From contig NC_092676.1 of assembly GCF_964355755.1 (NCBI RefSeq), forward strand, positions 5,433,888-5,497,887: 64,000 nt of DNA. The letters run 5' to 3'. The notes beneath the pieces are model-generated. The model saw only the letters and a program-made list of their open reading frames with translations. It was not told the origin of the DNA and did no database searches. Numbering within the stretch: position 1 is the first letter of the stretch; every line of letters begins with the position of its first letter. Shown piece after piece: positions 30,073-62,240 of this stretch. The translations under genes and the position numbers were made by a program. This DNA comes from Antedon mediterranea. Its lineage: Eukaryota > Animalia > Echinodermata.

Positions 30073-30361
30073 ATGTTCATCTTAAGAGGAATCATACTAC
30101 TGTTTTATATTGCTATATTGATTGCATTGTTATTTTCTCGGTGTTTTAGTATCAGCTTCACTGACGTTAACGTTACCGATCGTGTCACCGATTCCGTTAT
30201 CGATCATGTTGCCTACCCGGTTACCGAGACCAATCATGTTACCGATCATGATGTGACCGATTCTGATATTGATCCTGTTACCTATATAGTTACCGATACC
30301 AATCCTGTTACGGATCCTGTCACTTTTCCGGTTGTCAAGACCAATCCTGTTACCCTTCCCG
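30073..30361 (+). CDS. LGR exon 1: signal peptide + VTD(H/P) repeat segment
   Basis: MFILRGIILLFYIAILIALLFSRCFS hydrophobic leader; donor G|GTATGA in phase 1 matches exon 2. Confidence 0.78.
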
Positions 30362-33300
30362 GTATGATTGCTTTACTTTTTAAATTTCATTATGAATTTA
30401 TTAATTAAGAATATGCTTATACTATAACTATACAGTATTATCACTAAATTTGATGGACATGTTATATTGATGACGTAGCCTATCTTTGAACCGTAGACGT
30501 TGTACTAAAAAAAAGAACGAAACTAAAGAACTAAAAACATCGAAAGCACTCTCTTGTACACTTTTAAATAACGTTTATTTTTACGTTGACTTTACTGTAA
30601 CTTAATTTGTTAGCCGATTAATTTTTATTGTAATTAATTGGACTTTCACAGCTAGACATGTCTGACTAAAGACTGAAGATTGCATTTGTAACAATAAATA
30701 TTTTTTTAAATGATATTTTCCCCTTTTTCCTTTCATGCCTACAACGGCGCAGATCCATTTTTAATAGTGGGGGCGGGGGAGGGGACGTATACAAAATTAA
30801 ATACTTCGCAATCGATTTCTGAGCACATCAAAATTGTCACGATTTTGTGTCTTTGTCTACGATCTATGTTGTATAATAATACTTTTAGTTTTCGGTTTAA
30901 TTTATGAGCATGTCAATGTGATACATTCTACGTGAAAAAGTCGAGCTAATGTTTTTGATTTGTCCGACCTTGAATGTAAAAAAAATTAGGCCTAATGGTC
31001 GATGAACAAAGTTAACAAACTCATAGAATAATAAATAAAGACGCATACAACATAAGTTCTGGCTTAAAGAGTTTAATTAGTAAATGAACATTCGCCCATG
31101 TAAAACTGCACATAAAGGTCATAAGCAAAGTTTTATAGCAATAATTTTCCAATTCTAAGTAAGCACAACAGGGATGCTCAGAGAAAAGTAGCCCGCGGCA
31201 GGTGCCAAGGCACCGCCAAGAGCAGGCTTGAAAATGTTAGGTATGACAACATACAAGAAGTTCAAGTAAATGGTAACAACTGTATAATACATTGCCTTTA
31301 CAGTACGTTCCACCGTACCGCCGTATTCTGCAATCGCCCAGTTCGCGCTAATGCGGATTGAAGCGGCGCTAATGCGGATCGAAGCGGCACTAAACATGCA
31401 TGCCAAAACACAATACCACAGAGAGATTCAAGGAGCCGCCGCCCGGAAGAATACAATCATTAACAAAGTTTTTAGGCACTGGTCCTTATGGGCCACTGGT
31501 TATATTCACGCAAAATCTATTCTTTTTAGGTATTGTATTTTCTGAAAATAATTTTCAATAATTTAATGATTTTGCTGTTGAAAAGTGAAGGGACAATCCC
31601 CACTAAAAAATATAGGGGAGGGGGTGAGGGTACATCTCCCCTCGTACCCCCAGGATCGGCGCCGGTGCCTTCCTAACGTATCTCCGAATTGTCTTGTTCT
31701 TTACAAAAGCAGAATGTCCAGTCTACTGCCATTGTGAAGTGTTGCCTACTGGTGGTCACAGAGTACGATGTCGTCGTCCATGGAGTATTAATAATATCCC
31801 AACTATCAACAAGTATAATAATCTTGTTCACATAACAGAATTGTAAGTATATGGTTATTGTGAGGCAAACCATCTAACTATAAAATCTACTATATAACTT
31901 TAAAATATGTAATAACTGTTGTACATAATTTTTTTTAGTACCTTTGATTAAAATTCAATACAAATTTGAAATGCCAGATAATAATAATAATTACCACCGA
32001 CCCAGGCCATCCACACCAATCATGATCAAATTTCTGTATTACTATTTGTGCAGCGAGAAAAACAAAACGTAAATGTGAACGCAGGTGTACTCATTTCATA
32101 ATATAGTAACATGCACACAAATGCTAACAGTTATTTTTCAGTCAGTAAGCCTATAAAGTTTTCAACAAGTTCTTAATGAAAAATGTTCAATGTTTACCAA
32201 ACAGCTTGAATATTGTAATTTTACTGTATTGTTTTAATTTGAGAGGATTCGTACAAAAACCGAATAAGTATTTGATAGCAGTTTGACAGTATTAAACCTG
32301 TTGTTCTGCAGTTTAAAATCTGAGAAAAACGACAGAAGAATAGATTCTCTTTCTTGAGCTATACTCGTTCACTTGATTTCTATCCATCCGTTCATCCGGG
32401 TAAACTAAAATACAAACAGAGAAACAATTGACACGACGCAATGAAGCATGTCCCTAACGTATACTATACGGCCTAACATACATAAATCGCCGTTAACATA
32501 GGCATACTATCATCATTATGTATATCAAACATAACTAACTCAAAAATAATTAATAAATACAAATTATAATAATTTCGTTGTTTAATTTGTTTGAAAATAA
32601 ACAATGTTTGGTAATAAAAGTTGACATATCAAACAGCTTGAATATTGTAATTGCTACTGTACATTGTTTTTACTTTGAAGGTATTTGAGCCATAACGAAA
32701 TAAGTACATTGCCAGCCAATGTATTTGATAGATTGACAGCACTGACATACCTGTAAGTATTTAGATCATATTAATTTCTTTGTTTAATTTGGTTTAAAAA
32801 TAAAAATTAAAAATAATGAATATAATAATGTATATTATGCTTTGTATCATTTAATAAAACCACTTATAAGCATTAGTAAAATATTTAATATTAACAAATT
32901 ATGATACCAAATATTTAGAATTTGCTTTAGAAATTATGTCTATGAGAATAACACTTTCTTATTAATATAATTAATTTTTGCCTAATTAAGTATACTCATC
33001 AGCATTCACTATGTAGATAATGTCCCTATCATTGACTGAAATACTATAAAAATAATTTAAAATGTATAAGAAAAAAAAATTGATGTATCGAACATCTTGA
33101 ATATTGTAATTGTTACTGTACATTGATTTTACTTTGAAGGTATTTGGGGGTGGGGGAGTGGGAGGCCGGGAAGGAACAAAATAAGTACATTGGCAGCCAA
33201 TGTATTTGATAGATTGACAGCACTGACAGAACTTTAATTATTTTTGCTCTTTTAATTTGTTTAATTAGTTATTAAAAATAATTAATAAAATAATGTATAA

Positions 33301-36300
33301 TAATAAATATTATACATTGTATCATTGTATAATGTAATCAATACATACAGAGTTTAAAAACCACCTAGCATTAGTAAAATATTCAATCATTAGGCCTATC
33401 AATAAATTATTAAAAAAATATTTAATACTGTTTTTCAGTCATTAAACCTATACAGTTTTCATCTTGAATTTCTTAATGAAAAATGTGAATGTTCAATGTT
33501 TACCAAACAGCTTGAATATTGTAATTTTACTGTATTGTAGTTTTTACTTTGAGGGGATTCGTACAAAAACCGAATAAGTATTTGATAGTAGTTTGACAGT
33601 ATTAAACCTGTTGTTCTGAAGTTTAAAATCTGAAAAAAAAAAACGACAGAAGAATAGATTCTCTTTCTTGAGCTGTACTCGTTCACTTTATTTCTATCCA
33701 TCCGTTCATCCGGTAAACTAAAATTCAAACAGACAGAGAAACAATTGACACGGCGCAATGAAGCATGTCCCTAACGTATACTATACGGCCTAACATACAT
33801 AAATCGCCGTTAACATGGGCATACTATCATCATTATGTCTAACAAACATAACTAACTCAAAAATAATTAATAAATACAAATTATATAATGTAAATACCTG
33901 ATACTAGGGCTCACTTAACAAGATTCTGTCTCCACACGGAGCATTAAAGGTGTACAACAACGTTAATACAACGTATCGCCTATTGTGCACAACTTTCATA
34001 CTATCAACAGTTACTACAAGAAACCGTAAATAGCTTAATTTACATATCAAGGTATCAAGGTGCGATGTACATACATAACACCTGTATCTTGATCATAATA
34101 ATTTCATTATTTAATTTGTTTGAAAATAAACAATGTTTGGTAGTAAAAGTTGACATATCGAACAGCTTGAATATTGTAATTGCTACTGTAAATTGTTTTT
34201 ATTTTGAAGGGATTTGAGCTGGAACCAAATAAGTACATTGCCAGCCAATGTATTTGATAGATTGACAGCACTGACAGAACTGTAAGTATTTAGATCATAT
34301 TAATTTCTTTGTTTAATTTGGTTTAAAAATAAAAATTAAAAATAATGAATATAATAATTGTATATTATGCTTTGTATCATTTAAAACCACTTATTAGCAT
34401 TAGTAAAATATTTAATATTAACAAATTATGATACCAAATATTTAGACTTTGCTTTAGAAATTATGTCTATGAGAATAGGCCTTTCTTATTAATATAATTT
34501 ATTTTTGCCTAATTAAAGTATACTGATCAGCATTTACAATGTAATGTCCCTATCATTGACTGAAATACTATAAAAATAATTTAAAATGTATAGTAGTTTG
34601 ACAGTATTAAACCTGTTGTTCTGAAGTTTAAACGCTGAAAAAACGGCAGAAGAATAGATTCTCTTTCTTGAGCTATACTCGTTCACTTTATTCCTATCCA
34701 TCCGTTCATCCGGTAAACTAAAATACAAACAGAGAAACAATTGAAACGGCACAATGAAGCATGCTATACGGCCTAACATACATAAATCGCCGTTAACATA
34801 GGCATACTATCATCATTATGTCTATGAAACATAACTAACTAAAAAATAATTAATAAATACAAATTATATAATGTAAATACCTGATACTATGGCTCACTTA
34901 TACAAGATTCAGTCTCCACACGGAGCATTAAAGGTGTACAACAACGTTAATACAACGTATCGTCTATTGTGTACAACTTTGATACCATGAACAGTGACTA
35001 CAACAAACCGTAGCCTAAATTACATATCAAGGTATCAATGTGCGATGTACATACATAACACCTTGATCATAATAATTTCATTATTTAATTTGTTTGAAAA
35101 AAAAACAATGTTTGATAGTAAAAGTTGACATATCGAACAGCTTCAATATTGTAATTGCTACTGTACATTGTTTTTACTTTGAAGGGATTTGAGATATAAC
35201 CAAATAAGTACATTGCCAGCCAATGTATTTGATAGATTGACAGCACTGACAAAACTGTAAGTATTTAGATCATATTAATTTCTTTGTTTAATTTGGTTTA
35301 AAACTAAAAATTAAAAATAATGAATATAATAATGTATATTATGCTTTGTATCATTTAATAAAACCACTTATAAGCATTAGTAAAATATTTAATACTAACA
35401 AATTATGATACCAAATATTTAGAATTTTCTTTAGAAATTATGTCAATGAGAATAACACTTTCTTATTAATATAATTTATTTTTGCCTAATTAAAGTATAC
35501 TCATCAGCATTTACAATGTAATGTCCCTATCATTGACTGAAATACTATAAAAATAATTTAAAATGTATAAAAAAAAATAAAAAATGATGTATCGAACATC
35601 TTGAATATTGTAATTGTTACTGTACATTGATTTTACTTTGAAGGTGTTTGGGGGTGGGGGAGTGGGAGGCCGCGAAGGAACAAAATAAGTACATTGGCAG
35701 CCAATGTATTTGATAGATTGACAGCACTGACAGAACTTTAATTATTTTTGCTCTTTTAATTTGTTTAATTAGTTATTAAAAATAATTAATAAAATAATGT
35801 ATAATAATAAATAGTATACATTGTATCATTGTATAATGTAATCAATACATACAGAGTTTAAAAACCACTTAGCATTAGTAAAATATTAAATCATTAGGCC
35901 TATCAATAAATTATTTAACAAATATTTAACACTGTTTTTCAGTCAGTAACCCTATACAGTTTTCATCAATTTCTTAATGAAAAATGTGAATGTTCAATGT
36001 TTACCAAACAGTTTGAATATTGTAATTTTACTTTATTGTAGTTTTTACTTTGAGAGGATTCGTACAAAAACCGAATAAGTATTTGATAGTAGTTTGACAG
36101 TATTAAACCTGTTGTTCTGAAGTTTAAAATCTGAAAAAACGACAGAAGAATAGATTCTCTTTCTTGAGCTATACTCGTTCACTTTATTTCTATCCATCCG
36201 TTCATCCGAGTAAACTAAAATACAAACAGAGAAACAATTGACACGGCGCAATGAAGCATGTCCCTATCGTATACTATACGGCCTAACATACATAAATCGC

Positions 36301-39300
36301 CGTTAACATAGGCATACTATCATCATTATGTCTATCAAACATAACTAACTAAAAAATAATTAATAAATAAAAATTATATATTGTAAATACCTGATACTAG
36401 GGCTCACCTAACAAGATTCTGTCTCCACACTGAGCATTGAAGGTGTACAACAACGTTAATACAACGTATCGCCTATTGTGCACAACTTTCATACCATGAA
36501 CAGTGACTACAACAAACCGTAGCCTAAATTACATACCAAGGTATCAAGGTGCGATGTACATACATAACACCTGTATCTTGATCATAATAATTTCGTTATT
36601 TAATTAGTTGGAAAATAAACAATGTTTGGTAGTAAAAGTTGACATATCGAACAGCTTCAATATTGTAATTGCTACTGTACATTGTTTTTACTTTGAAGGG
36701 ATTTGAGATATAACCAAATAAGTACATTGCCAGCCAATGTATTTGATAGATTGACAGCACTGACAGAACTGTAAGTATTTAGATCATATTAATTTCTTTG
36801 TTTAATTTGGTTTAAAACTTAAAATTAAAAATAATGAATATAATAATGTATATTATGCTTTGTATCATTTAATAAAACCACTTATAAACATTAGTAAAAT
36901 ATTTAATATTAAAAATTATGATACCAAATATTTAGACTTTGCTTTAGAAATTACGTCTATGAGAATAACACTTTCTTATTAATATAATTAATTTTTGCCT
37001 AATTAAGTATACTCATCAGCATTTACTATGTAGATAATGTCCCTATCATTGACTGAAAGACTATAACAAATAATTAAAAATGTATAAGAAAAATAAAAAT
37101 TGATGTTTCGAATATCTTGAATATTGTAATTGTTACTGTACATTGATTTTACTTTGAAGGTATTTGGGGGTGGGGGAGCAGGAGGCCGGGAAGGAACAAA
37201 ATAAGTACATTGGCAGCCAATGTATTTGATAGATTGACAGCACTGACAGAACTTTAATTATTTTTGCTCTTTTAATTTGTTTAATTAGTTATTAAAAATA
37301 ATTAATAAAATAATTTATAATAATAAATATTATACATTGTATCATTGTATAATTTTTTTTTTTTTTTTATTCGGTATATAAAAATATATTACAAAACGAC
37401 AGTCAAGGACTGAAATGAATTGTATTACAAATAAATAAAAATTAGTTAAAATTGCTATAAAAATAGAAACATCTTATTAAAATTAGATACCGTACCATAA
37501 AATTATAAAACATACATGAATAAAAATAATGTAATCAATACATACAGACTTTAAAAACCACTTAGCATTAAAATATTCAATCATTAGGCCTATCAATAAA
37601 TTATTAAAAAAATATTTAATACTGTTTTTCAGTCAGTAAACCTATACATGCAGTTTTCATCAATTTCTTAATGAAAAATTTGAATGTTCAATGTTTACCA
37701 ATCAGCTTGAATATTGTAATTTTACTGTATTGTTGTTTTTACTTTGAGGGAATTCGTACAAAAACCGAATAAGTATTTGATAGTAGTTTGACAGTATTAA
37801 ACCTGTTGTTCTGCAGTTTAAACGCTGAAAAAACGACAGAAGAATAGATTCTCTTTCTTGAGATATACTCGTTCACTTTATTTCTATCCATCCGTTCAAC
37901 CGGTAAACTAAAATACAAACAGACAGAGAAACAATTGACACGACGCAATGAAGCATGTCCCTAACGTATTATACTATACGGCCTAACATACATAAATCGC
38001 CGTTTACATGGCAATAATAACATCATTTTGTCCATCAAACATAACTAACTCAAAAATAAATAAATAAATACAAATTATATAATGTAAATACCTGATACTA
38101 GGGCTCACTTAACAAGATTCTGTTTCCACACGGAGTATTAAAGGTGTACAACAACGTTAATACAACGTGTCGCCTATTGTGCACAACTTTCATACCATGA
38201 ACAGTGACTACAACAAACCGTAAATAGCCTAAATTACATATCAAGGTATCAAGGTGCGATGTACATACATAACACCTGTATCTTGATCATAATAATTTCA
38301 TTATTTAATTTGTTTGAAAATAAACAATGTTTGGTAGTAAAAGTTGACATATCGAACAGCTTGAATATTGTAATTGCTACTGTACATTGAAGGAAGGAAC
38401 AAAATAAGTACATTGGCAGCCAATGTATTTGATAGATTGACAGCACTGACAGAACTTTAATTATTTTTGCTCTTTTTATTTGTTTAATTAGTTATTAAAA
38501 TAATTAATAAAATAATGTATAATAATAAATATTATACATTGTATCTTTGTATAATGTAATCAATACATACAGAGTTTAAAAACCACTTAGCATTAGTAAA
38601 ATATTCAATCATTAGGCCTATCAATAAATTATTACAAAAATATTTAATACTGTTTTTCAGTCAGTAAACCTATAAAGTTTTCATCAATTTCTTAATGAAA
38701 AATTTGAATGTTCAATGTTTACCCAAACAGCTTGAATATTGTAATTTTACTGTATTGTTGTTTTTTACTTTGAGGGGATTCGTACTAAAACCGAATAAGT
38801 ATTTGATAGTAGTTTGACAGTATTAAACCTATTGTTCTGCAGTTTAAACGCTGAAAAAAACGACAGAAGAATATATTCTCTTTCTTGAGCTATACTCGTT
38901 CACTTTATTTCTATCTATCCGTTCATCCGGGTAAACTAAAATACAAACAGAGAAACAATTGACACGACGCAATGAAGCATGTCCCTAACGTATACTATAC
39001 GGCCTAACATACATAAATCGCCGTTAACATAGGCATACTATCATCATTATGTCTATCAAACATAACTAACTCAAAAATAATTAATAAATACAAATTATAT
39101 AATGTAAATACCTGATACTAGGGCTCACTTATATAAGATTCTGTCTCCACACGGAGCATTAAAGGTGTACAACAACGTTAATACAACGTATCGCCTATTG
39201 TGCACAACTTTCATACCATGAACAGAGACTACAACAAACCGTAAATAGCCTAAATTACATATCAAGGTATCAAGGTGCGATGTACATACATAACACCTTG

Positions 39301-42300
39301 ATCATAATAATTTCGTTGCTTAATTTGTTTGAAAATAAATAAAAAAATAATTCATAACTATGTTTGAAGTATTTACAGCATTTAGATAAAAGCTGACCTA
39401 TCAAACTGCTTGAAAATTGTAATTGTTACTGTACATTGTTTTTACTTGGAAGGTATTTGGGTTATAACCGAATAAGTACATTGCCAGCCAATGTATTTGA
39501 TAGATTGACAGCACTGATAACACTGTAAGTATTTAGATCATATTAATTTCTTTGTTTAATTTGGTTTAAAAATAAAAATTAAAAATAATGAATAAAATAA
39601 TGTATATTATGCTTTGTATCATTTAATAAAACCACTTATAAGCATTAGTAAAATATTTAATATTAACAAATTATGATACCAAATATTTAGAATTTTCTTT
39701 AGAAATTATGTCTATGAGAATAGCACTTTCTATTAATATAATTTATTTTTGCCTGATTAAAATATACTGATCAGCATTTACAATGTAATGTCCCTATCAT
39801 TGACTTAAATACTATAAAAATAATTTAAAATGTATAAAAAAAATAAAAATTGATGTATCGAACATCTTGAATATTGTGTACAACTTTGATACCATGAACA
39901 GAGACTACAACAAACTGTAAATAGCCTAAATTACTTACCAAGGTATAAAGGTGCGATGTACATACATAACACCTGGATCTTGATCATAATAATTTTGTTG
40001 TTTAATTTATTTGAAAATAAACAATGTTTGGTAGTAAAAGTTGACATATCGAACAGCTTCAATATTGTAATTGCTACTGTACATTGAAGGAAGGAACACA
40101 ATAAGTACATTGGCAGCCAATGTATTTGATAGATTGACAGCACTGACAGAACTTTAATTATTTTTGCTCTTTTTATTTGTTTAATTAGTTATTAAAATAA
40201 TTAATAAAATAATGTATAATAATAAATATTATACATTGTATCTTTGTATAATGTAATCAATACATACAGAGTTTAAAAACCACTTAGCATTAGTAAAATA
40301 TTCAATCATTAGGCCTATCAATAAATTATTACAAAAATATTTAATACTGTTTTTCAGTCAGTAAACCTATAAAGTTTTCATCAATTTCTTAATGAAAAAT
40401 TTGAATGTTCAATGTTTACCCAAACAGCTTGAATATTGTAATTTTACTGTATTGTTGTTTTTTACTTTGAGGGGATTCGTACTAAAACCGAATAAGTATT
40501 TGATAGTAGTTTGACAGTATTAAACCTATTGTTCTGCAGTTTAAACGCTGAAAAAAACGACAGAAGAATATATTCTCTTTCTTGAGCTATACTCGTTCAC
40601 TTTATTTCTATCTATCCGTTCATCCGGGTAAACTAAAATACAAACAGAGAAACAATTGACACGACGCAATGAAGCATGTCCCTAACGTATACTATACGGC
40701 CTAACATACATAAATCGCCGTTAACATAGGCATACTATCATCATTATGTCTATCAAACATAACTAACTCAAAAATAATTAATAAATACAAATTATATAAT
40801 GTAAATACCTGATACTAGGGCTCACTTATATAAGATTCTGTCTCCACACGGAGCATTAAAGGTGTACAACAACGTTAATACAACGTATCGCCTATTGTGC
40901 ACAACTTTCATACCATGAACAGTGACTACAACAAACCGTAGCCTAAATTACATACCAAGGTATCAAGGTGCGATGTACATACATAACACCTGTATCTTGA
41001 TCATAATAATTTCGTTATTTAATTTGTTTGAAAATAAACAGTGTTTGGTAGTAAAAGTTGACATATCGAACAGCTTCAATATTGTAATTGCTACTGTACA
41101 TTGTTTTTACTTTGAAGGGATTTGAGATATAACCAAATAAGTACATTGGCAGCCAATGTATTTGATAGATTGACAGCACTGACAAAACTGTAAGTATTTT
41201 ACTCATATTAATTTCTTTGTTTAATTTGGCTTAAAAATAAAAATTAAAATAATGAATATAATAATGTATAATATGCTTTGTATCATTTAATAAAACCACT
41301 TATAAGCATTAGTAAAATATTTAATATTAACAAATTATGATACCAAATATTTAGACTTTGCGTTAGAAATTATGTCTATGAGAATAACACTTTCTTATTA
41401 ATATTATTTATATTTGCCTAATTAAAGTATAATCATCAGCATTTACAATGTAATGTCCCTATCATTGACTGAAATACTATAAAATAATTTAAAATGTATA
41501 AAAAAAATAAAAATTGATGTATCGAACATCTTGAATATTGTAATTGTTACTGTACATTGATTTTACTTTGAAGGTATTTGGGGGTGGGGGAGTGGGAGGC
41601 CGGGAAGGAACAAAATAAGTACATTGGCAGCCAATGTATTTGATAGATTGGCAGCACTGACAGAACTTTAATTATTTTTGCTCTTTTAATTTGTTTAATT
41701 AGTTATTAAAAATAATTAATAAAATAATGTATAATAATAAATATTATACATTGTATCATTGTATAATGTAATCAATACATACAGAGTTTAAAAACCACTT
41801 AGCATTAGTAAAATATTAAATCATTAGGCCTATCAATAAATTATTTAAAAAATATTTAATATTGTTTTTCAGTCAGTAAACCTATACAGTTTTCATCAAT
41901 TTCTTAATGAAAAATGTGAATGTTCAATGTTTACCAAACAGCTTGAATATTGTAATTTTACTGTATTGTAGTTTTTACTTTGAGAGGATTCGTACAAAAA
42001 CCGAATAAGTATTTGATAGTAGTTTGACAGTATTAAACCTGTTGTTCTGAAGTTTAAACGCTTAAAAAACGACAGAAGAATAGATTCTCTTTCTTGAGAT
42101 ATACTCGTTCACTTTATTTCTATCCATCCGTTCATCCGGTAAACTAAAATACAAACAGAGAAACAATTGACACGACGCAATGAAGCATGTCCCTATCGTA
42201 TACTATACGGCCTAACATACATAAATCGCCGTTAACTAATTAACAAATTATGATACCAAATATTTAGAATTTTCTTTAGAAATTATGTCAATGAGAATAA

Positions 42301-45300: not shown

Positions 45301-48300
45301 GTTTGTTAATATTATACAGAGGTCTAAATTGTTACTGTTGTACAAAAACAATAGGAGCTTAATTATCGATTATTGATGTTTATACCTTAACCGTATAATA
45401 TAAGTTTGTTAATATTATACAGAGGTCTAAATTGTTACTGTTGTACAAAAACAAAAGAAGCTTAATTGTTTAAAGATCCATTATTCATTCATTTGATTTA
45501 TTCATGGTCAAAAAGAGTAAAATAAAGTATTTGAAATTATTTTCTATTGTTCAAAGTTAAAAATTCACAAACAAATATAAAAATGAATTAAATATTATTA
45601 ATTAGTCTTAATTTAAACAGGTTATAAATTATTATATTACTAAAAATATTAAGATGCACTGCACTCATTGTTTAAATATGCTATAGAAATTGTGTCTATG
45701 AGACTTTCCTATTTTAACATTATAAGTATCATATCAAACAGCTTGAATATTGAAGTTTTACTGTACATGTTTTATACTTTGAAGGTACTTAGATGGTAAC
45801 CAACTAAGTAAATTGCCAACCAATGCCTTTAATGGTTTGACATCGTTGACAAACCTGTGAGTGTTTTTTTATGTTTACCATAAACTTGTTTATAATGTAG
45901 ATCCAGCAGGTTAATCTATACATTTTACAAGGTGCCTTTTTGTCATCCAGGTATAGGAGGCCTGTTAAGCAAACTCTGTCTGGGCCAAATCGCTTCGGTC
46001 AGACATGATTTTAAAGGCTGGACTAGTTTTGTCTAAATCGGTCAGTCCTGTTTTGGCACCGGATCAACTTTGCGTCTTGCTACACTTCATTCACAACTGT
46101 ACTATTAAGCAGAATATATTTTATTTGAAATACCCGTTTTGGTACTTTTTTAATTATTTGTTGATTGCTACAGTATGTACATGTGGAAACTAATACTTTT
46201 CAATATTTGCAAATATTATCAAATTTGATCATGACAATTTATTTAGATGATAATAATATAAAAAAAACATTAGTTATATAAATACGAATAAAAAAAACCA
46301 TTATTAACATGGATGGGACTAGTTAGAAATAATACAAATGCCTCATTAAATGCAAATATGGAAAATAAAGTTGATATATCTATCAAACAGAATGGATATT
46401 TTAATTCACTTTCTATGCATTTTCTTTGAAGGATATTCCACTGTGAACAATATTATGGCAGTACATGCTTGTAAGTATTTTGTGCATATTTTTATGAATT
46501 GTTCGATAGTATAGTTCAAATAATCAGAATCTGTTTTAGCAATTATGTTTGTCCTGATGTTCACTTAATTTTTTTTGATAGCAAAAATGAAATCACAGGC
46601 AAACCAAACATTAATAAATATTAGTATCTAAACTTCTAAGTTAATTAACAAAAAATTATAATTTGTTTAACTTCATACTGTACATTCTTTTTCAAGTGAA
46701 ACAAATCAAATACGTACATTGGAAGCCAATGCATTTAATGGTTTGAAAGTATTGCAAAAGCTGTGAGTATTTGTTCTTTCAATTTGTATTTACTGGTATA
46801 CACACTTTCATTTCAGAATGTTTGTGAAATAATTTTCCAGATCAAAAATACACTTTTATCATTCATCACCTTGGTGTAGTACTGTAAATCTCAGTTCCCC
46901 AAATATAAAACAGTAAATATTTGTTTTATAACATACATAGGCCTACCTACTACATAGAATATAGTTATATGTTGCTTATTTTGTCTCATAAACCTTGCTT
47001 TATCCATTAACTCAAAGTAACCTACAGTACTTCAGTCATGTCTGTTTATCTTGTGATCTCTGAATTATAAATGTAGTCAAATGGCCAATCTTAGCTGTTT
47101 TATAAATTGCAGTTACCTGTTATATACACACAGCACCAGCAAAGTAACAGGCCTAGAAAACAAACCAAAACAAATTAAAAATAAAAGATCTTTTTTCCTG
47201 GAAGATTTATGAATTCTCAATTATGTTTATGTCCCATAATGATAGTTGAACTATCATCTGCTTTTGACCAATCAGAAGACTTGAATCTTTTAATGTGATA
47301 TATAATAAATAAATAAAATAAACAGAAAATATATTTCTACATTCTTTCCTTCTTCGGAGTGACACAAGGGAAACCAATAGATTGTGATAATTTGATCTTG
47401 AGAATAGTTATTTAAAAAAAAAAATCAATTTTGTAATTTTATAATACTTTCATTGATTTACCTTGAAGGTGGTTGAACGATTTCAAGATAAGTACATTGC
47501 CAACCAATGCCTTTAATGGTTTGACATCGTTGACAGAATTGTGAGTGTTTTTATGTTCATGTTTATACCGTAAAGTTTTCCATAATTTAGATTTCCTTAT
47601 TTTAACATATCAAACAGTTGAATTTTGAATTTTTAATGTGCATGTTTTATACTTTAAAGGCGTTTAGATGGTAACCAACTAAGTACATTGTCAACTAATG
47701 CCTTTAATGGTTTGACATCGTTGACAGAACTGTGAGTGTTTTTTCATGTTTACCATAAAGTTTTTCATAATGCACATCCAGTAGAGTAATCTATACATCT
47801 TACAAGATGCCTTTTTTTAGTCGCGTGCAAACGTGACTCTACAGCTCACTGTGTCAGTGGGTCAAATTTGAGTACGTGAAAGTCTTCATGTCCCCTTAGG
47901 GAGGCCTTTTGGGAGGTTCGTGTTATCTCCAGTTAGCCTATCATTTCCAAAATTACTGTAAAAATTATATTCATTGTCATTTAGGTAGTTGGTTATGGGA
48001 TTATAAATACAAAAAAAAACAATAATTTAAAGTTTATATAAAAAAGAAATATAGTAGTGACAGTTTGGCTTCTGTAACTATAACTTAAAATTTAAATTTA
48101 CCAGGATTTAAACATTGTTAATGGTTTCTGTAAATGTTTAGATATAGAAATTTGAACATATTTTATAATTATGTCTAAATGGATCTGGAAATTGCATAAT
48201 TTAACTTTTGAAGTTTATTTATAAGGTCTATTTTGTAGTGTAATCTCCATATACTTTCAGTACGTCTACTATCTAGTTAGAAGCAGGAATGCTTATTTAT

Positions 48301-51300
48301 TTTGAATGTCAATTATTTTGCAAGTACAATGTATCCATTCATAAAGTGATTTTGTATTACTAACGGTAGTTATTTATTTTCAATAAAGCTAATATCTAAT
48401 TTACCTTTTTTTACAGGAATTTAGATAACAACATTATAACTTCCATAGACCCAGATGCATTTTCTTCTGTTGCTGCATCACTTTCAATTTTGTAAATTAA
48501 CATTATGTCATTTTTGCATGTCTATAACACATACTTAGGCTTTAAAAAATGTTCTTTTGCTGTCATCCGCCCGCCCCCTAATTATCGAAAAAATTAGGGG
48601 CGGACAAAAAAAGAGTTATATTATCGTTGAAGGCACTTACATAAATTAAAAAATACTATATAATATTTTGCACCCAAGCGCCACACTCTGCATCCGCCCG
48701 GCCCTGCCAATACATTGTTAGTATTATTTTTGTTAATAATAACAAATGATAATACAGTACAGTATGTAACAGGAATCGGATTATAAACATTGTCACGATA
48801 TTTCAAATAATCATGTTTGCAGGATTTTTTATTTAATTTGTTTTTTTGATTGCAAAAATATAGTTTATATACTTCATACTGTGCATTCTTTTTCAAGTGA
48901 AACAAATCAAATAAGTACATGGGAAGCCAATGCATTTAATGGTTTGAAAGCATTGCAAAAGCTGTGAGTATTTGGTCTTTCAATTTGTATTTACTGTTAT
49001 ACACACTTTTATTTCTTTATTTCTTTCTTTCTTTCTTTACCCATAAATATAAATTATAAACATTGTAATAATATACAAATAATAATAATTATATCAAGGG
49101 AAGGGCTAAAAAATAGTTAAAACTAATCAAGTTCAGCCCCTAAACATTGAAGTATAAATAGTTATATAAATAAATTAGGGCTACTTGTCTAAAATAAAAT
49201 TAATATACATAAACATTTTTTTTTTTTTAAATACACTTTCTCTCAAATATATACAATATAATTCTCTTATAAAATAAATAAATATCACTATACAAACAAA
49301 TAGTATGTTTTCATTTCTTTTTTGAATTTGCTTTTTGTTAGAAACCTTAAATAATCCGGGATTTCATTCCAGAGCTTTGCACCAGAATACTTGATGGAAT
49401 GTTGTCCTATGTTTGTTCTATATTTTGGTACATACAACTTTTTTCTAGTCTGAGACCTTGATGAATAACGAAAATGAATATACAAAAAATATTTAGGAGT
49501 TGTATCTGGAAATTTACCATGTAAACTATCATGAACAAATAAAGTAATTAAATACTGATGCTGCTGATAAATATTTAAAATTTTAAGTTCTTTGAATAAT
49601 AATGATGTTGGTGCTAGTCTAAGAAATCAGAAGAGTTTACAATATCATTTACATAAATAAGAAACAATGTAGGTCCTAAGACCGACCCTTGTGGTACTCC
49701 ACAAGTTATTGACTTCTCATTAGACTCTATTCCATTTACACTGATACATTGTTTCCTATTATATAAATAATTTTTAAATAAAGCTAATGGCAACCCTCTT
49801 ATCCCATATGCATTTAACTTATCCAGTAGTATTTGATGATTGACTGTATCGAATGCTTTCTTTAGATCTAAAAATATTCCAACAACTATGTTTCCCTTAT
49901 CTAATTTCTCAGACAAATTTTGTACTAACTCAATAATAGCAAGTTTTGTGCTGTACCCTTCTCTAAATCCATACTGTTGATGATATAATAAATCAAATTT
50001 ACTTAAATAACATAAAAGTTGCTTATTTATAATTTTCTCAAATACTTTACTAAATTGTGGCAATACAGATATTGGTCTGTAATTCCCTGGATCTGATGGC
50101 AGACCCTTTTTAAATAATGGAAATACCTTTGCTTTTTTTAAGTCATCAGGGAAGATCCCTGTAGATAATGACAAATTAATTATATACGTAAAAGGTCTAG
50201 ATATATAATCTGCTGCATATATAATTAATTTAGGATTAATTTGGTCCAAGCCTACAGCTTTATTCTTATCTAAACCCTTTAAGATATCATTTACTTCTTC
50301 ATCAACAACATAATTGAAAAATAATGAATTTTGGGGTACAGTTGATAAATATATATTATGATTTACATTTGTGTTATCAATACATTCTTCTGCAAGATTT
50401 TTTGCAATTGAAACAAAATAATCGTTGAAACCATTAATTATTGCTGTTTGATTAGTTTCTATATTAACATTGCCATCACATGATTTAATTTCTAATTTAT
50501 TAGGTAATTTCATTTTCTTCTTACCTCTTCCTAAAATATCATTAATAATTTTCCATATTTTATTTGTATTACCACACTTTTCTTCAAATTGATCTGAGTA
50601 ATATTTCTGTTTTGCTGTTCTTAAGGTGTTTGTAAGACAATTTCGATATCGTTTATACTTTGCTAACATATCTACATTGTAATTAATTTTCATTACCTTT
50701 GAAAATAACCTATGTTTATGTTTAATTGATTTTTTTATACTAGAATTAATCCATGGTTTCTTTAGTTTCTTTCTTAACAGTTAACAGTTTTTAAAACTAA
50801 TGGTGCATGTTTATTACAAACTTCTAGAAATAACCTTTTAAACTCTGTGTAAGCAGAATTTACCTCTTGACTATCAAATACTTCAGACCAATTTACATTC
50901 ATAAGATCATGTTGGAAGTGTTGGATATTAAACTTGGAAAATTTTCTAAATTTGATTTGATCAGTCTGTTGGAAGTAGTCATTAAAGTTCTCTAACATAC
51001 AAAAAGTAGCCAAATGGTCTGATATATCTAATTCTATGGTTCCTGAAGTTAAAAATCTAGAATGTATATTTGTATACACATGATCAATCGTTGTTCTTGA
51101 GCTACTGGTTATTCGTGTATATACATTAATAAGTTGTATAAAGTTTAAGCAAGACAAGCTATTTTTTAGACTTAAAGCATCTGCAGCATTTAAATTACTT
51201 GCATTAATATTAAAATCCCCAATTAATATGCATTCAGTACCTTGTTGTTTAATATTTGCAAGTGACAATTCTAGGCTTTCAATAAATTCCTCAACGTTTG

Positions 51301-54300
51301 TATTTGGTTGCCTATATAAAACTCCAACTATGAGGGATTTATTTTGACCAACATCTATTTCCAGCCATAAAGACTCAGAATGATGTACATTATAATCAAT
51401 AGCCGTATAATTAATTGAATCATGTATGTACGCTCCTACTCCACCTCCTCTTTGATTAATACGACATTTAGTTTCCAACGAAAACTAAATTTCAGAATGT
51501 TTGTGAAATAATTTTCCAGATCAAAAATACACTTTTATCATTCATAACCTTGGTGTAGTACTGTAAATCTCAGTTCTCCAAATATAAAGCAGTCAATATT
51601 TGTTTTATAATAATATACAGATACCTAATACATAGATTATAGTATGTGGCTTATTTTGTCTCATAAAACTTGCTTCATCCATTAACTCAAAGTGATTTAC
51701 AGGTCTTCATCCATGTATGTTTATCATGTGCTCTCTGAATCATAGATAGTCAATGGCCAATCTTGGTTGTGGTACTGGTTGCAGTTACCTTATACATACA
51801 CACAGTACCAGCAAAGTAATGGACCATGAAAATAAAACAAAACAAATTAAAAATACAAGTTCTTTTTCCTGGAAAATTTATGAATTTTCAATTATTCCTA
51901 TGTCCCAGGATTATCATCTGCTTTTGACCAATCAAAAGACTTGAATCTTTGAATGTGATATATAATAAATAAATAAAATAAACAGAAAATATATTTCTAC
52001 TTTCTTTCCTTCTTCAGAGAAACACAGTGGAAACCAACAGATTGTGATAATTTGATCTTGAGAATAGTTATTTAGAAAAAAAATAAAAATTTTGTAATTT
52101 TATAATACTGCCATTGATTTACTTTGAAGGTGGTTGAACGATTCCAAGATAAGTACATTGCCAACCAATGCCTTTAATGGTTTGACATCGTTGACAGAAT
52201 TGTGAGTGTTTTTATGTTCATGTTTATACCGTAAAGTTTTCCATAATTCAGATTTAGCAGTGTTTAGCTAGCTTTTAAAAACACATTGTGTCTATGAGAA
52301 TAACTCATTTTAACATATCAAATTGAATTTTGAATTTTTACTATACGTTTTCTATACTTTGAAGGCGTTTAGATGGTAACCAACTAAGTACATTGCCAAC
52401 CAATGCCTTTAATGGTTTGACATCGTTGACAGAATTGTGAGTGTTTTTATGTTCATGTTTATACCGTAAAGTTTTCCGTAATTCAGATTTAGCAGTGTTT
52501 AGCTAGCTTTTAAAAACACATTGTGTCTATGAGAATAACTCATTTTAACATATCAAATTGAAGTTTGAATTTTTACTATACGTTTTCTATACTTTGAAGG
52601 CGTTTAGATGGTAACCAACTAAGTACATTGCCAACTAATGCCTTTAATGGTTTGACATCATTGACAGAACTGTGAGTGTTTTTTCATGTTTACCATAAAC
52701 TTTTTCATAATGCACATCCAGTAGAGTAATCTATACATCTTTTTACAAGATGCCTTTTTTTAGTCGCGTGCAAACGTGACTCTACAGCTCAATATGTCAG
52801 TGGGTCAAATTTGAGTACGTGAAAGTCTTCATGTCCCATTAGGGAGGCTTTTTGGGAGGTTCGTGTTATCTCCAGTTAGCCTATCATTTCCAAAATTACT
52901 GTAAAAATTATATTCATTGTCAATTAGGTAGTTGGTTATGGGATTATAAATACAAAAAAGATACCTTTATTGTCAAATAATGTGCATCTGTTTATGGGCG
53001 ATGTATTTGTGTTTGACACTGCTTAAATTTAAAAGCATTTAGGCTTTTAACAATAATTTAAAGTTTATATAAAAAAGAAAGTTGGAAGTGACAGTTTGGC
53101 TTCTGTAACTATAACTTAAAATTTAAATTTACCAGGATTTAAACATTGTTAATGGTTTCTGTAAATGTTTAGATATAGAAATTTGAACATATTTTATAAT
53201 TATGTCTAAATGGATCTGGAAATTGCATAATTTAACTTTTGAAGTTTATTTATAAGGTCTATTTTGTAGTGTCATCTCCATATACTTTCAGTACGTCTAC
53301 TATCTAGTTAGAAGCAGGAATGCTTATTTATTTTGAATGTCAATTATTTTGCAAGTACAATGTATCCATTCATAAAGTGAATTTGTATTACTAACGGTAG
53401 TTATTTATTTTCAATAAAGCTAATATCTAATTTATCTTTTTTTACAGGAATTTAGATAACAACGCTATAACTACCATAGACCCAGATACATTTTCTTCTG
53501 TTGCTTCATCACTTTCAATTTTGTAAGTTAACATTATGTCATTTTGCATACTTAGGCTTAAAAAAATGTTCCTTTGCTGTCATCTGGCCTCCCCCTAATT
53601 ATCGAGAAAAAAAAATTAGAGACGGACAAAAAAAGTATTATTTTTTTATTTGAGGGCGCTTAAGCAATAAAATCTTTACTACTATACTTTGACTCCATTG
53701 CAATATTGCAATATAGTGCATGTGTATTTATTAAGAAATGCTAGTGTTAGTGTTAGTTGTTATTAAATATTAAATAATGAAGGAAAGGGTGAAACAAACA
53801 TTGAGTTCTAGAAAAACAGTTGATGAACGGAAAACCACCTTACAGTTAAAAGATGATATTGTTGGCAACTCTGATAATTCTTGTACATTTGTGCTACGTT
53901 AACAATGTAGTTTGAATTTGTTGTTTTTTAGAAAGCTAAGAGGCAACAAGTTACAGGTGTACAGAGATAGAACATTTCAGCAACTCATAGGCTTAAAAGA
54001 ATTGTAAGTAATGATAGATCCCACACAATTTTACATAGCTTAGGTTCAAGACTGTGTTTCGGCTTAATATTAGTAAAAAGAGAAATATTTTGGCTCATAT
54101 AGCATTTCATAGGCATACTAGTTGAGCTTAAAACACCGACTGGTGAGCTAACATAAAAATGACAAGACTACAGACTTTAGACAAGTCTAAATTTTACAGA
54201 TACGTCTGTGTAAAGTATGAATGTGATTTTCTGCAACTCCAGTGATTTATTAACTCATAGGCATTTTGATAATGATGATATAGTTGGAGGTATAATTTTT

Positions 54301-56242
54301 GTTGATTATGTTTAATTAGAAATATCCTAATATTTCATTAAATTTCAATTAAACAGAATTAACTGAATAAGATAACTAAGTGATTCTGGTAAATATTTTA
54401 TTTATATAAATTATTGGTATTTTTTTTATCTGTGTAATATTTTAATGATGAATTATATCAAACACATATCTTTAAATTAGTTGATTATTATCATTGATAA
54501 AGTGAAAAATTAGCAAGGACAAGTTTACTGATTTTATATATTTAAAGATATGTTTTAAGCTCTGTCTATACACTATCAAACTGATTTGACAAACAAGTGT
54601 GATTTGCCCATATATGGTAGTAATATTCTCAAATATGGTAGTGATATGACATCATCATGACCATATGAGCATATCACATTTTTTGTCACATAAAGTTTGA
54701 TACATGTACATGGAGCTTTAAAATAGTCAGATACCTTCTTGAAATACATAAATGCGATACTAGATTTGTGTTTAAGTAACAAGAGCACCTGCTAAGACCC
54801 GCCCGTATGAATTTTATAATTTTTTTGAACATAAAAATCAAAAGAAATTAGAAACTGTGTTGTTCAAGATCAATCAAATCACATCATGATCAGTAAGAGC
54901 AATTAATAACAATTTTATTTTTCTATTTGATTATAATTTTCACCAAAGAAAGTGTAAATATTGCCTTTAATTTTTAATGAGATACACCCAACTTATACTT
55001 ATTTTGCATTTATTTCCTTTTGTATTTATTCATTTGTTAACTTAGTTGCCAGCGGGTATTTCAAGAAACGCATTGAAGGGTAACATGTAATTCTAATTTC
55101 AGAATGTTGGTACATGACTATTTAAAACCTATCCCAAAATATAATAATAGTGTCCTTTAAGATACAATGCAAAAATAATAACTAAACAGTAATTATTTAG
55201 TTGCTTTGTTTACTTTGACTTTTACAGGTACTCTGATTTCTCAAGTCTCTGTTGCCTCGTTGGCGCCATCGATGTCTGCGAGCCTTCAGATGCATTTTCA
55301 TCGTGTGAAGACTTGCTAAAAAATGAACTTCTCCGTGTGTTGATGATGATTATCGGGTTATCTTCGGTCATTGGCAATGTAGTTGTAATCGTTTCACGAA
55401 AGTTTAAAAAGGATAATGATTCAGGTAACAATGTTAATAGGGTCCAAACCACACTAATTACTAATCTTGCCGTGTCCGACTTGCTGATGGCAGTCTACTT
55501 GATCATCATTGCGAGTGCGGATATACACTTTCGTGGACGGTACGCGACAGCTGCAAGGAATTGGAAGAGCAGTTTTCTTTGCAGCTTTGCCGGGGCAATT
55601 TCTACTATCTCTGGGCAATGCTCAGTGTTTACACTGATGCTGCTGAGTGTGGATAGAGCTATTAACATTGTTAATCCATTTAGTACGAAACGCCTCAATC
55701 GTACAAAATGTAGAATCATTATCGGCTTCGCATGGCTATTTTGGATTGTGCTGAGTTTTCTTCCAATAACTGATATTTCATATTTTGGGGATAATTACTA
55801 TGGCAAAGAGAGTGTGTGCCTCGCTCTGCCGCTGACAAAGAGTCATTGGCAAGGCTGGGAGTATGCAGTCGCCATGTTTGTTGTATTTAACAGCATCGGG
55901 TTCATTGTAATAACAGTGAGCTACCTCGTAATCTTCTTATCGGTAAAGAGATCGGGGGCCACTGTCAATAGAGGACAGATGAGGAAGGAACAGTTGAAAA
56001 TGGCGAGGAAACTAGGCTTAATAGTTTTCACAGATTTCTGTTGCTGGGGTCCGATTATAGTAATGGCAATTGGTTCTGAGATGGGTTGGATGACGATTCC
56101 TGATGAAATATATGTTTGGGCAGCGACATTCATCATCCCCATCAACTCCGCAGTCAATCCGTATCTTTACACAATTGCTTATATGTTTAAGTGCAAAGTG
56201 CGTCAACCGGCAGTTGTACAGATTCCACTTAATACATTGTGA
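30073..56242 (+). CDS. Leucine-rich repeat-containing GPCR (type C hinge, GRL101/RXFP-like), up to 24 exons, about 969 aa if all intact exons are used
   Basis: Signal peptide/Thr-Asp-rich exon, LRRNT exon, 20 single-LRR exons plus a 39-nt mini-exon (all phase 2-2), and a terminal hinge+7TM exon; the summed length of 2910 nt is in frame. Confidence 0.88.
30742..31667. mobile_element. hAT-like non-autonomous element in LGR intron 1
   Basis: TIR CAACGGCGCAGATCC / GGATCGGCGCCGGTG; flanks CATGCCTA and CCTTCCTA (6/8 match); also present in the paralog from about 63249. Confidence 0.5.
31710..31842 (+). CDS. LGR exon 2: LRR N-terminal cap
   Basis: AECPVYCHCEVLPTGGHRVRCRRPWSINNIP..ITEL (CPxxCxC..C); phase 1 to 2; donor GTAAGT. 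Confidence 0.85.
32681..32752 (+). CDS. LRR exon A1 YLSHNEISTLPANVFDRLTALTYL
   Basis: 72 nt, AAG acceptor, GTAAGT donor, phase 2-2. Confidence 0.85.
33140..33233 (+). pseudogene. LRR pseudo-exon type B (other copies 35644-35737, 37160-37253, 41574-41667; fused forms about 38393-38456 and 40090-40153)
   Basis: A G-rich insert of +22 nt shifts the frame, and the donor GT is mutated to TT. Confidence 0.8.
34210..34281 (+). CDS. LRR exon A2 DLSWNQISTLPANVFDRLTALTEL
   Basis: 72 nt, AG/GTAAGT, phase 2-2. Confidence 0.85.
35185..35256 (+). CDS. LRR exon A3 DLRYNQISTLPANVFDRLTALTKL
   Basis: 72 nt, AG/GTAAGT, phase 2-2. Confidence 0.85.
36699..36770 (+). CDS. LRR exon A4 DLRYNQISTLPANVFDRLTALTEL
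   Basis: 72 nt, AG/GTAAGT, phase 2-2. Confidence 0.85.
37354..37525 (-). mobile_element. Short poly(A)-tailed retroposon fragment
   Basis: Poly-T next to TTTATT (AATAAA on the minus strand), ATAAT target duplication; absent from sister repeat units. Confidence 0.7.
39453..39524 (+). CDS. LRR exon A5 YLGYNRISTLPANVFDRLTALITL
   Basis: 72 nt, AG/GTAAGT, phase 2-2. Confidence 0.85.
41118..41189 (+). CDS. LRR exon A6 DLRYNQISTLAANVFDRLTALTKL
   Basis: 72 nt, AG/GTAAGT, phase 2-2. Confidence 0.85.
42435..42506 (+). CDS. LRR exon A7 YLSGNYIRTLPVNVFDGLTALREL
   Basis: 72 nt, AG/GTAAGT, phase 2-2. Confidence 0.85.
43411..43482 (+). CDS. LRR exon A8 FLHGNQLSTLPTNAFNGLTSLTYL
   Basis: 72 nt, AG/GTGAGT, phase 2-2. 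Confidence 0.85.
44265..44331 (+). pseudogene. Truncated D-type LRR exon (NLDNNAI..) fused to a 48-bp palindrome
   Basis: The acceptor and first 7 codons match the exon at 53448; the rest and the donor are missing. Confidence 0.75.
44651..44722 (+). CDS. LRR exon A9 DLGYNQISKLSANAFDGLTTMITL
   Basis: 72 nt, AG acceptor, weaker GTGTGT donor. Confidence 0.72.
45164..45465. repeat. Three tandem copies of a roughly 100-bp intron segment
   Basis: TGTTTATACCTTAACCGTATAATATAAG...GTACAAAAACAA three times; single copy in the paralogous intron near 43003. Confidence 0.8.
45785..45856 (+). CDS. LRR exon A10 YLDGNQLSKLPTNAFNGLTSLTNL
   Basis: 72 nt, AG/GTGAGT, phase 2-2. Confidence 0.85.
46432..46470 (+). 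CDS. 39-nt mini-exon IFHCEQYYGSTC
   Basis: TTTGAAG acceptor like the LRR exons, GTAAGT donor, open in phase 2-2. Confidence 0.62.
46697..46762 (+). CDS. 66-nt LRR exon E1 ETNQIRTLEANAFNGLKVLQKL
   Basis: AG/GTGAGT, phase 2-2; lacks the first two LRR codons. Confidence 0.78.
47469..47540 (+). CDS. LRR exon A11 WLNDFKISTLPTNAFNGLTSLTEL
   Basis: 72 nt, AG/GTGAGT. Confidence 0.82.
47660..47731 (+). CDS. LRR exon A12 RLDGNQLSTLSTNAFNGLTSLTEL
   Basis: 72 nt, AG/GTGAGT. Confidence 0.82.
48417..48491 (+). CDS. 75-nt LRR exon D2 NLDNNIITSIDPDAFSSVAASLSIL
   Basis: CAG acceptor, GTAAAT donor, phase 2-2. Confidence 0.75.
48898..48963 (+). CDS. 66-nt LRR exon E2 ETNQISTWEANAFNGLKALQKL
   Basis: AG/GTGAGT; no partner mini-exon seen upstream; core Leu replaced by Trp. 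Confidence 0.62.
49016..51488 (-). mobile_element. 5'-truncated CR1/L2-group LINE (APE endonuclease + RT), non-functional
   Basis: EN motifs GGGVGAY, GVLYRQP, IGDFN, TIDHVY and SDH. RT motifs NYRPIS, QYGFR, FLDLKKAFDTV and GVPQGSVLGPTLFLIYVND. (GAAA)n tail and ATTTC on both flanks; the empty site is seen in the paralogous intron near 46810. Confidence 0.92.
49288..51478 (-). pseudogene. Disrupted LINE ORF2
   Basis: Frameshift at a 7-bp tandem duplication TTAACAG (about 50774-50787); internal deletion near 49614 removes the [Y/F]ADD motif and thumb. Confidence 0.85.
52130..52201 (+). CDS. LRR exon A13 WLNDSKISTLPTNAFNGLTSLTEL
   Basis: 72 nt, AG/GTGAGT. Confidence 0.82.
52365..52436 (+). CDS. 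LRR exon A14 RLDGNQLSTLPTNAFNGLTSLTEL (hybrid)
   Basis: 72 nt, AG/GTGAGT; 235-bp period. Confidence 0.82.
52600..52671 (+). CDS. LRR exon A15 RLDGNQLSTLPTNAFNGLTSLTEL
   Basis: 72 nt, AG/GTGAGT. Confidence 0.82.
53448..53522 (+). CDS. 75-nt LRR exon D3 NLDNNAITTIDPDTFSSVASSLSIL
   Basis: CAG/GTAAGT, phase 2-2. Confidence 0.85.
53932..54003 (+). CDS. Last LRR exon KLRGNKLQVYRDRTFQQLIGLKEL
   Basis: 72 nt, TAG/GTAAGT, phase 2-2. Confidence 0.85.
54557..54720. mobile_element. Palindromic MITE, same family as 12704-12862
   Basis: AAGCTCTGTCTATACACTATCAAACT ... AAAGTTTGATAC..GGAGCTTT. Confidence 0.6.
55228..56242 (+). CDS. LGR terminal exon: hinge + rhodopsin-type 7TM domain
   Basis: CAG acceptor, phase 2; hinge YSDFSSLCC..CEPSDAFSSCEDLL; NLAVSDLLM, SVDRA, CLALP, FTDFCCWGPI, PINSAVNPYLY; stop TGA. 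Confidence 0.95.
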
Positions 56243-61288: not shown

Positions 61289-61698
61289 TAGATGTTGAAG
61301 CTTGGTTCTCACTAGGACGCAACCAAAAGGACGGAAGGGCAACGTAAGAAATCTGACCAATCACAAACGATAGCTTTTCATTGGTCAACTCGGCATACGA
61401 CCTTGCGTTGCGTCCTAGTTGGGACCAAACTATATAGTCACCATACTTCACAAAGTTGTTTACTCTCAAAGTTTGATGATATTCAATGTAGAGTAAACGT
61501 AACAAGGAAAATGTTCAAATAATACATTATGAAAAGAATGAAATAATAGATATAAATATATGCAAATCCTGTATTGAGAATACTGTAACTTACAATGAAT
61601 AAAAATAAAGTATAAGACCTACAAAATGAAAAGTAGATCTGAGGTTTTAGTAGCAGAATGAAAGTAGAAAACCCAAATGTTGAAATCTGAGTTTTCTA

Positions 61699-62240
61699 GA
61701 CACACCCAGCCTCACTCTACCTATATCTAATGAAACTAGACACACCCAGCCTCACTCTACCTATATCTAATGAAACTAGACACACCCAGCCTCACTCTAC
61801 CTATATCTAATGAAACTAGACACACCCAGCCTCACTCTACCTATATCTAATGAAACTAGACACACCCAGCCTCACTCTACCTATATCTAATGAAACTAGA
61901 CACACCCAGCCTCACTCTACCTATATCTAATGAAACTAGACACACCCAGCCTCACTCTACCTATATCTAATGAAACTAGACACACCCAGCCTCACTCTAC
62001 CTATATCTAATGTAACTAGACACACCCAGCCTCACTCTACCTATATCTAATGGAACTAGACATACCCAGCCTCACTCTACCTATATCTAATGTAACTAGA
62101 CACACCCAGCCTCACTCTACCTATATCTAATTAAACTAGACACACCCAGCCTCACTCTACCTATATCTAATGAAACTAGACACACCCAGCCTCACTCTAC
62201 CTATATCTAATGTAACTAGATACACCCAGCCTCACTCTAC
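61699..62240. repeat. 40-bp minisatellite upstream of LGR copy 2
   Basis: Same unit as 29071-29732, about 13.5 copies. Confidence 0.95.

Follow-up and report, generated by a model that had tools for sequence, protein, structure and literature searches.

In the genome of the crinoid Antedon mediterranea, a stretch of 64,000 nucleotides (contig NC_092676.1, positions 5,433,888 to 5,497,887; hereafter the window, with positions counted from its first letter) holds a gene in which 20 exons, each encoding one leucine-rich repeat (LRR), precede a single exon for a seven-transmembrane (7TM) domain. We propose that this gene, a GRL101-like LRR G-protein-coupled receptor (GPCR), probably represents a germline-diversifying recognition receptor, in which tandem duplication has multiplied the one-repeat exons and gene conversion has likely homogenised them, and in which the predicted binding face is likely under selection. 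Papers are cited below by PMC accession, each citation referring to the excerpts of the paper on which we drew.

Results

A scan for segments bounded by AG and GT with an LRR reading recovered 20 exons between the signal and cap region and the 7TM exon, with one repeat apiece: sixteen of 72 nucleotides (nt), two of 66 nt (starting at 46697 and 48898) and two of 75 nt (48417 and 53448). All 20 have splice phase 2-2. A predicted splice that joins them to exon 1 (30073-30361), exon 2 (31710-31842) and the 7TM exon (55228-56242) yields one frame of 956 residues whose sole stop is terminal, and the number, sizes and phases of the exons stated in an earlier reading of the letters made without database searches (the sequence-only reading) are thereby confirmed. 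Distinct peptides are encoded by 19 of the 20. These exons are intact in the sense of being spliceable, not canonical: the two 66-nt exons are missing two beta-strand residues, and the conserved Asn is missing from two others (47469 and 52130). Exon junctions fall within the beta-strand of each repeat. No further 7TM or signal exon was found inside the array, and no other 7TM within the 64-kb window.

All parts of the gene, including the broken copies described below, lie on the forward strand. Exon 1 encodes a hydrophobic signal segment and a mucin-like spacer rich in Thr, Val, Asp and Pro, and ends in phase 1; exon 2 encodes a Cys-rich N-terminal cap (CPxxCxC...C) with a first degenerate repeat, ends in phase 2 and has no Pfam match. 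They are followed by block A (32681-42506), seven young 72-nt exons (32681, 34210, 35185, 36699, 39453, 41118 and 42435) that differ pairwise by 1-15 nt and sit in duplication units of 1.0-1.7 kb. Further downstream are a group B exon (43411-43482), a divergent group A exon with the weak donor GTGTGT (44651-44722), another group B exon (45785-45856), five exons within 46697-48963 (46697, 47469, 47660, 48417 and 48898) and four within 52130-53522 (52130, 52365, 52600 and 53448), the latter block being a duplicate of 46810-48639. The last LRR exon (53932-54003) is single-copy and conserved in Antedon paralogs, and the final exon encodes a hinge (LCC...CEDL) and a rhodopsin-family 7TM of GRL101/RXFP type. 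The cassette consensus given in the sequence-only reading describes the first seven or eight exons and does not hold for the remainder.

Differences among the young cassettes are concentrated on the predicted binding face. For this face we took the six positions marked x about the strand in LxxLxLxxNxL; the strand falls there in each repeat of a structure model of the Antedon relative P0128 (predicted local distance difference test score, pLDDT, 78.7), which stands in for the spliced window protein. Among the seven exons of block A, first and second codon positions are variable at 9/12 face sites, compared with 4/34 other coding sites (p 1e-4) and 18/112 flanking intron sites (p 5e-5), p-values that are optimistic: the face follows the standard LRR motif but was fixed after the alignment had been seen, and the copies are related. 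The six face codons hold 14 extra codon states, every one of them non-synonymous. The other 17 codons hold four non-synonymous extra states and one synonymous, and the 8 codons for exposed convex positions together have 3 extra residues. A similar contrast is found beyond the window, where 10 of 11 relatives could be scored by entropy (P0012 had too few regular repeats). In P0136, which has 11 near-identical repeats, entropy is 1.78 bits on the face and 0.59 on the convex side, and the face also exceeds the convex side in P0128, P0125, P0006, P0002 and P0051. The true GRL101 models P0028 and P0017 have no such contrast (1.39 vs 1.35 and 1.74 vs 1.90).

Besides the qualification of the p-values, several points weigh against selection on the face. 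The five exons of group B show no excess (face 4/12 vs intron 18/78, p 0.48), and the entropy contrast is weak in P0005 (1.74 vs 1.49) and P0038 (2.32 vs 2.03). Conversion that spares exon ends could partly mimic the pattern, because the face codons sit near those ends. The abnormal exons (the 66-nt exons, a 39-nt mini-exon, the Asn-less exons and the internal copy of penultimate type) could represent decay. The excess of amino-acid change on the predicted face of block A nevertheless supports the diversified recognition surface envisaged in the sequence-only reading.

The array also contains 14 broken copies. Seven are of a deletion type (near 32233, 33552, 36053, 37747, 38773, 40470 and 41983; 32233-42060), six are frameshifted and donor-less (near 33140, 35644, 37160, 38385, 40082 and 41574; 33140-41667) and one is a truncated copy of the 75-nt penultimate-type exon (44265-44290). 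About 15 had been counted before; the fifteenth (46432-46470) is an in-frame mini-exon of 39 nt, a degenerate cassette with acceptor and donor intact. The broken copies trace to about three breakages that were later copied within the 1.0-1.7 kb duplication unit. These units are 80-96% identical (4-20% different) and carry private indels. The longest exact repeat in the array spans 823 bp (38403-39225 and 40100-40922) and is without a live exon, and the next longest is 186 bp. The 823-bp repeat could be the latest duplication, a conversion tract or a local assembly error.

In the frameshifted donor-less copies, the remaining 55 exon nt are nearly identical to live exons. Comparison of the dead exon at 37160 with the live exon at 36699 gave differences at 1/55 positions in the exon remnant and 31/169 in the flanks (p 0.0014), and the live exon at 41118 carries the diagnostic base of the dead type. 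Homogenisation of dead and live cassettes inside the exon by gene conversion is likely on this comparison, in line with the conversion postulated earlier; recent inactivation explains part of the similarity. Unequal crossover had been postulated as well: tandem duplication units are seen, and crossing-over would be the process that duplicated them. Four of the six donor-less cassettes carry a G-run insertion (33146, 35650, 37166 and 41580), with a strict G-quadruplex pattern in two. These G-run cassettes retain their acceptor, and their use is predicted to cause a frameshift and a stop, as in a possible poison exon or an exit to a secreted form. Conversion driven by G-quadruplexes was considered and is unsupported, the strict motif occurring in just 2 dead copies, both from one insertion.

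The 7TM exon matches PF00001 (E 7e-33), and its top solved matches are RXFP1 (the best, E 5e-46), FSHR, LHCGR and TSHR. The protein has the features of an LRR-containing GPCR (LGR), namely a rhodopsin-family 7TM nearest to the receptors for glycoprotein hormones and for relaxin and an LRR ectodomain that the predicted in-frame splice joins to it via a Cys-containing hinge; the same LRR-hinge-7TM architecture recurs in relatives and in the P0128 model. The hinge is short, as in type-C LGRs, and the 7TM groups with GRL101-like receptors. LDLa, present in type C and GRL101 receptors as one or more N-terminal modules, was not found: exons 1 and 2 have no Pfam match, an LDLa-rich relative gives no tblastn match outside the gene, and PF00057 is absent from close relatives. 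The database proteins closest to the 7TM are A. mediterranea models named 'GRL101-like' (95, 87 and 87/86%), the RefSeq name of all close relatives of the window gene, with Anneissia proteins at 55-59%.

The sequence-only reading had proposed setting the 7TM in a phylogeny against RXFP, GRL101 and LGR receptors. We built two quick trees, one from 63 chosen rows of 144 proteins and one from 28 rows, neither including vertebrate RXFP or LGR sequences. These place the window gene among GRL101-like receptors and apart from true GRL101. Its 7TM belongs to a crinoid-only LDLa-less clade (27/63 rows, support by the Shimodaira-Hasegawa-like approximate likelihood ratio test, SH-aLRT, 99; 10/28 rows, SH-aLRT 100) nested among LDLa-bearing crinoid receptors, and the true GRL101 ortholog of Antedon, P0028, groups outside this clade in both trees. 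That the window gene might itself be the true GRL101 ortholog was rejected, as P0028 holds that place with mollusc, arthropod and echinoderm GRL101. Two models of a brittle star, Amphiura filiformis (P0038 and P0051), carry 16-19 tandem repeats, each of 24 residues, on a GRL101-like 7TM and lack LDLa, but belong to another lineage; forcing them into a single clade with the crinoid group was rejected by the approximately unbiased (AU) test (p-AU 0.0025, for a grouping named after the first tree had been seen). The LRR expansions of brittle stars and crinoids are thus likely convergent, as far as these trees indicate.

Within A. mediterranea the clade comprises 30 protein models in 16 clusters, some of them partial, and at least 13 of its models, among those listed, lie on one 30.6-Mb contig. 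The models P0125 and P0128 are identical downstream and differ in their first cassettes, and window cassette types occur in them in other number and order. In contigs from four sequencing runs the 7TM exon occurs in several versions that overlap and differ, consistent with multiple copies, and 9/13 variants in this exon are synonymous among the read variants listed (best-supported 40 rows). The array thus feeds one GPCR, as had been claimed, in that it has a single 7TM exon, but the gene is a member of an expanded crinoid family and not a single-locus system. Duplication, the conversion signal, face-biased change and the cassette differences between paralogs support the further claim of a rapidly remodelled ectodomain on an LGR-type 7TM.

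A tandem paralog, which the sequence-only reading had overlooked, begins 32.5 kb downstream (62582-64000, with upstream sequence at 61295-62581), is 94% identical over 2.1 kb and would have its array beyond the window. Its exon 1 (62582-62870, forward strand) has 3 differences in 289 nt, with upstream and intron sequence 94% identical, and a 40-bp minisatellite upstream of exon 1 is common to gene and paralog. The intron after exon 48898 contains a long interspersed nuclear element (LINE) fragment on the reverse strand (49288-51484; Exo_endo_phos and RVT_1, endonuclease and reverse transcriptase), which lies where the 3' block duplication has its boundary. The last intron contains a small, very high-copy, inverted-repeat-like element (54550-54760). 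Upstream of the gene lie a Mutator-like element (MULE) transposase in several pieces (19972-23297, forward strand; PF10551 at 21359-21868), with inverted 16-bp tandem arrays on either side (15249-15498 and 23888-24162), and an acidic, proline-rich exon of an unrelated gene (3195-3674, reverse strand; no Pfam match).

Discussion

The variable lymphocyte receptors (VLRs) of lampreys and hagfish resemble the window gene in their 24-residue typical LRR, conserved frame and variable concave face. VLR assembly is a somatic, deaminase-dependent process of lymphocytes. The cassettes of the window fit the 24-residue LRRV consensus with a variable concave face (consensus from PMC4731796). VLR germline genes, however, are incomplete and are assembled from flanking donor cassettes (PMC12264053), while the window gene has a complete frame whose internal exons each have their own splice sites. 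In place of the LRRCT, stalk and glycosylphosphatidylinositol (GPI) or single transmembrane anchor of VLRs it has a hinge and a 7TM. Amphioxus VLR-like proteins have the same motif without somatic assembly (PMC10199209), and the cassette motif is that of the generic typical LRR. Among the closest full-length relatives of P0128, VLRA stands far below RXFP1, IGFALS, LGR4/5 and TLR13, and the best fold match of the P0128 model is LGR4. The LRR region of P0128, used as a query, matched mostly unnamed bacterial or metagenomic and Capsaspora LRR proteins and brought out no new isoform series. With VLRA ranking low, the best LRR matches in bacteria and Capsaspora, and a complete germline gene, the comparison with VLRs made in the sequence-only reading is not supported as a special relation. 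From its sequence, the receptor appears not to be a VLR, and the likeness to be in design only.

Known LGRs are mostly single-copy hormone receptors. RXFP1/RXFP2 and LGR4/5 are single-copy, with fixed repeats and conserved host ligands, and RXFP receptors have one LDLa. A survey of ambulacrarian LGRs found one ortholog per type (PMC8286064). With GRL101 and other type C2 LGRs (Lymnaea GRL101, Antedon P0028) the window gene shares an LRR ectodomain and 39-46% identity over hinge and 7TM, but GRL101 has about six old LRRs as opposed to up to 20 young ones here, and the window clade is LDLa-less, crinoid-only and present in many copies. The SudRes2 region of the snail Biomphalaria sudanica likewise has a tandem GRL101-like cluster with structural variation between haplotypes in a parasite-resistance region (PMC12297450). 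The snail proteins keep LDLa and have in addition a C-type lectin domain, and multiplication of LRR exons is not described in the excerpts drawn on here (PMC12297450). Neither LGRs nor exon-modular LRRs nor expanded GRL101-like clusters are new in themselves. We found no literature account of an LDLa-less, cassette-diversified crinoid clade, subscription papers and supplements lying outside the search.

Compatible with germline diversification is a different main source of diversity, combinatorial exon skipping, by which one gene would yield many receptors in an effect like that of Dscam. Arthropod Dscam has exon-modular repeats and in-frame exon choice; it is a different protein class, and the window gene shows no sign of mutual exclusion. 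Since all introns are at least 119 nt long, steric exclusion between exons is not expected. In favour of skipping, any subset of the 20 phase 2-2 exons splices in frame, the acceptor is AAG in 17/20 LRR exons, as against CAG or TAG in the 7TM exon, the last LRR exon and those of penultimate type, and the Anneissia RefSeq isoforms XP_033096707 (X1) and XP_033096713 (X2), which belong to the clade of the window gene, differ in exactly one repeat of 24 residues. Human NLRP3 is also documented to skip LRR exons stochastically; its exon-modular LRRs can, like those of the window gene, be skipped in frame, although it is another protein class (PMC6642158). However, uniform phase is an automatic result of duplicating a single exon and no more than a precondition, the common AAG may be inherited from a single ancestral exon, and the Anneissia pair is a one-exon difference between gene models. 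Contigs of four runs gave no clean splice joint over 52690-56400; run X9, guessed to be RNA, also covers intron and genomic repeats and was not counted as transcript data, and run X3, which matches introns with 0-1 differences and may itself be the source of this DNA, was not treated as independent. None of 10 listed runs containing the sequence was an RNA run, which speaks neither for nor against expression. We regard skipping as the main diversifier as unlikely, though worth keeping in view. A shade more doubtful is the broader possibility that dozens of crinoid GPCRs with diversifying, conversion-refreshed and combinatorially skipped cassettes form an anticipatory, VLR-like repertoire by splicing, evolved again in brittle stars.

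Other explanations would leave less room for a germline-diversifying receptor. The gene could be a decaying or nearly neutral paralog subject to repeat-driven exon churn without adaptive meaning, as might be suggested by its LINE insertion, its non-canonical exons, the 14 broken copies that about three events have left, and group B, which does not exceed the intron rate. This is improbable in view of the open 956-residue frame, the face changes of block A, every one non-synonymous and together above the rate of the introns, the same face contrast in other crinoid and brittle-star genes, and the mostly synonymous 7TM variants among those listed. An ordinary peptide-hormone receptor of relaxin or insulin-like growth factor (IGF) type, with repeat number of little consequence, would agree with RXFP1 as best solved relative (E 5e-46) and with the proposal of GRL101 as an IGF receptor (PMC8286064), but we find it very improbable: LDLa is missing, the true crinoid GRL101 (P0028) is in a separate clade, and the insulin-related peptides of crinoids are reported to number three, each with a single gene and a single receptor (PMC8286064), so that dozens of receptors with changing faces are not called for. 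The array might also be an expansion made by the assembly, to which the one 823-bp exact repeat (38403/40100) would testify. That is most improbable, because no live exon lies in this repeat and the second-longest exact repeat measures 186 bp; the units moreover diverge by 4-20% and have private indels, and the cassette types recur in Antedon models, which we counted as an independently assembled congener. Hardly credible, finally, is a VLR-like somatic assembly in which body cells would produce clonal receptors by copying or deleting cassettes. Cassettes of 24 residues with a variable face, and an exchange of sequence between dead and live cassettes, would suit it; unlike in VLRs, however, the germline gene is complete, with splice sites on every live cassette (PMC12264053), there is no LRRCT, stalk or GPI tail, and the motif similarity is generic.

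For the germline-diversifying receptor that we favour, unequal crossing-over would add and remove cassettes, conversion would keep their frame uniform, and positive selection would keep changing the six predicted face residues of each repeat. With the exon junction placed within the strand, an exon gained, lost or skipped would create a new strand from two cassettes with the frame unbroken. Paralogs, and probably alleles, would in this way differ in the binding surface that they join to a conserved signalling 7TM, and the signal would be passed on by the hinge, the 7TM and the final two repeats, all of them conserved, presumably through G proteins.

A face that keeps changing is expected when the ligand itself changes, which suggests a non-self or environmental ligand. 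Recognition of microbes or parasites seems to us about evenly poised between true and false, a chemosensory or conspecific cue is a lesser but serious possibility, and a ligand of some other class has a small chance. In favour of an immune role, a hyperdiverse GRL101-like cluster maps to a schistosome-resistance region in snails, although the validated variant of that study lies in a neighbouring non-GRL101 gene (PMC12297450). In favour of chemosensation rather than immunity, GRL101-like transcripts are enriched in the sensory tentacles of the sea star Acanthaster (PMC6267866) and of the snail Charonia (PMC13403566). On this evidence the two roles are not told apart.

This receptor family bears on the question of how recognition comes to be diversified in invertebrates, where lymphocytes do not recombine receptor genes. 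If our interpretation is correct, an expanded LDLa-less clade with modular, fast-changing faces would constitute a new kind of variable sensor built on a GPCR, and would represent convergence on the design principle of the VLRs.

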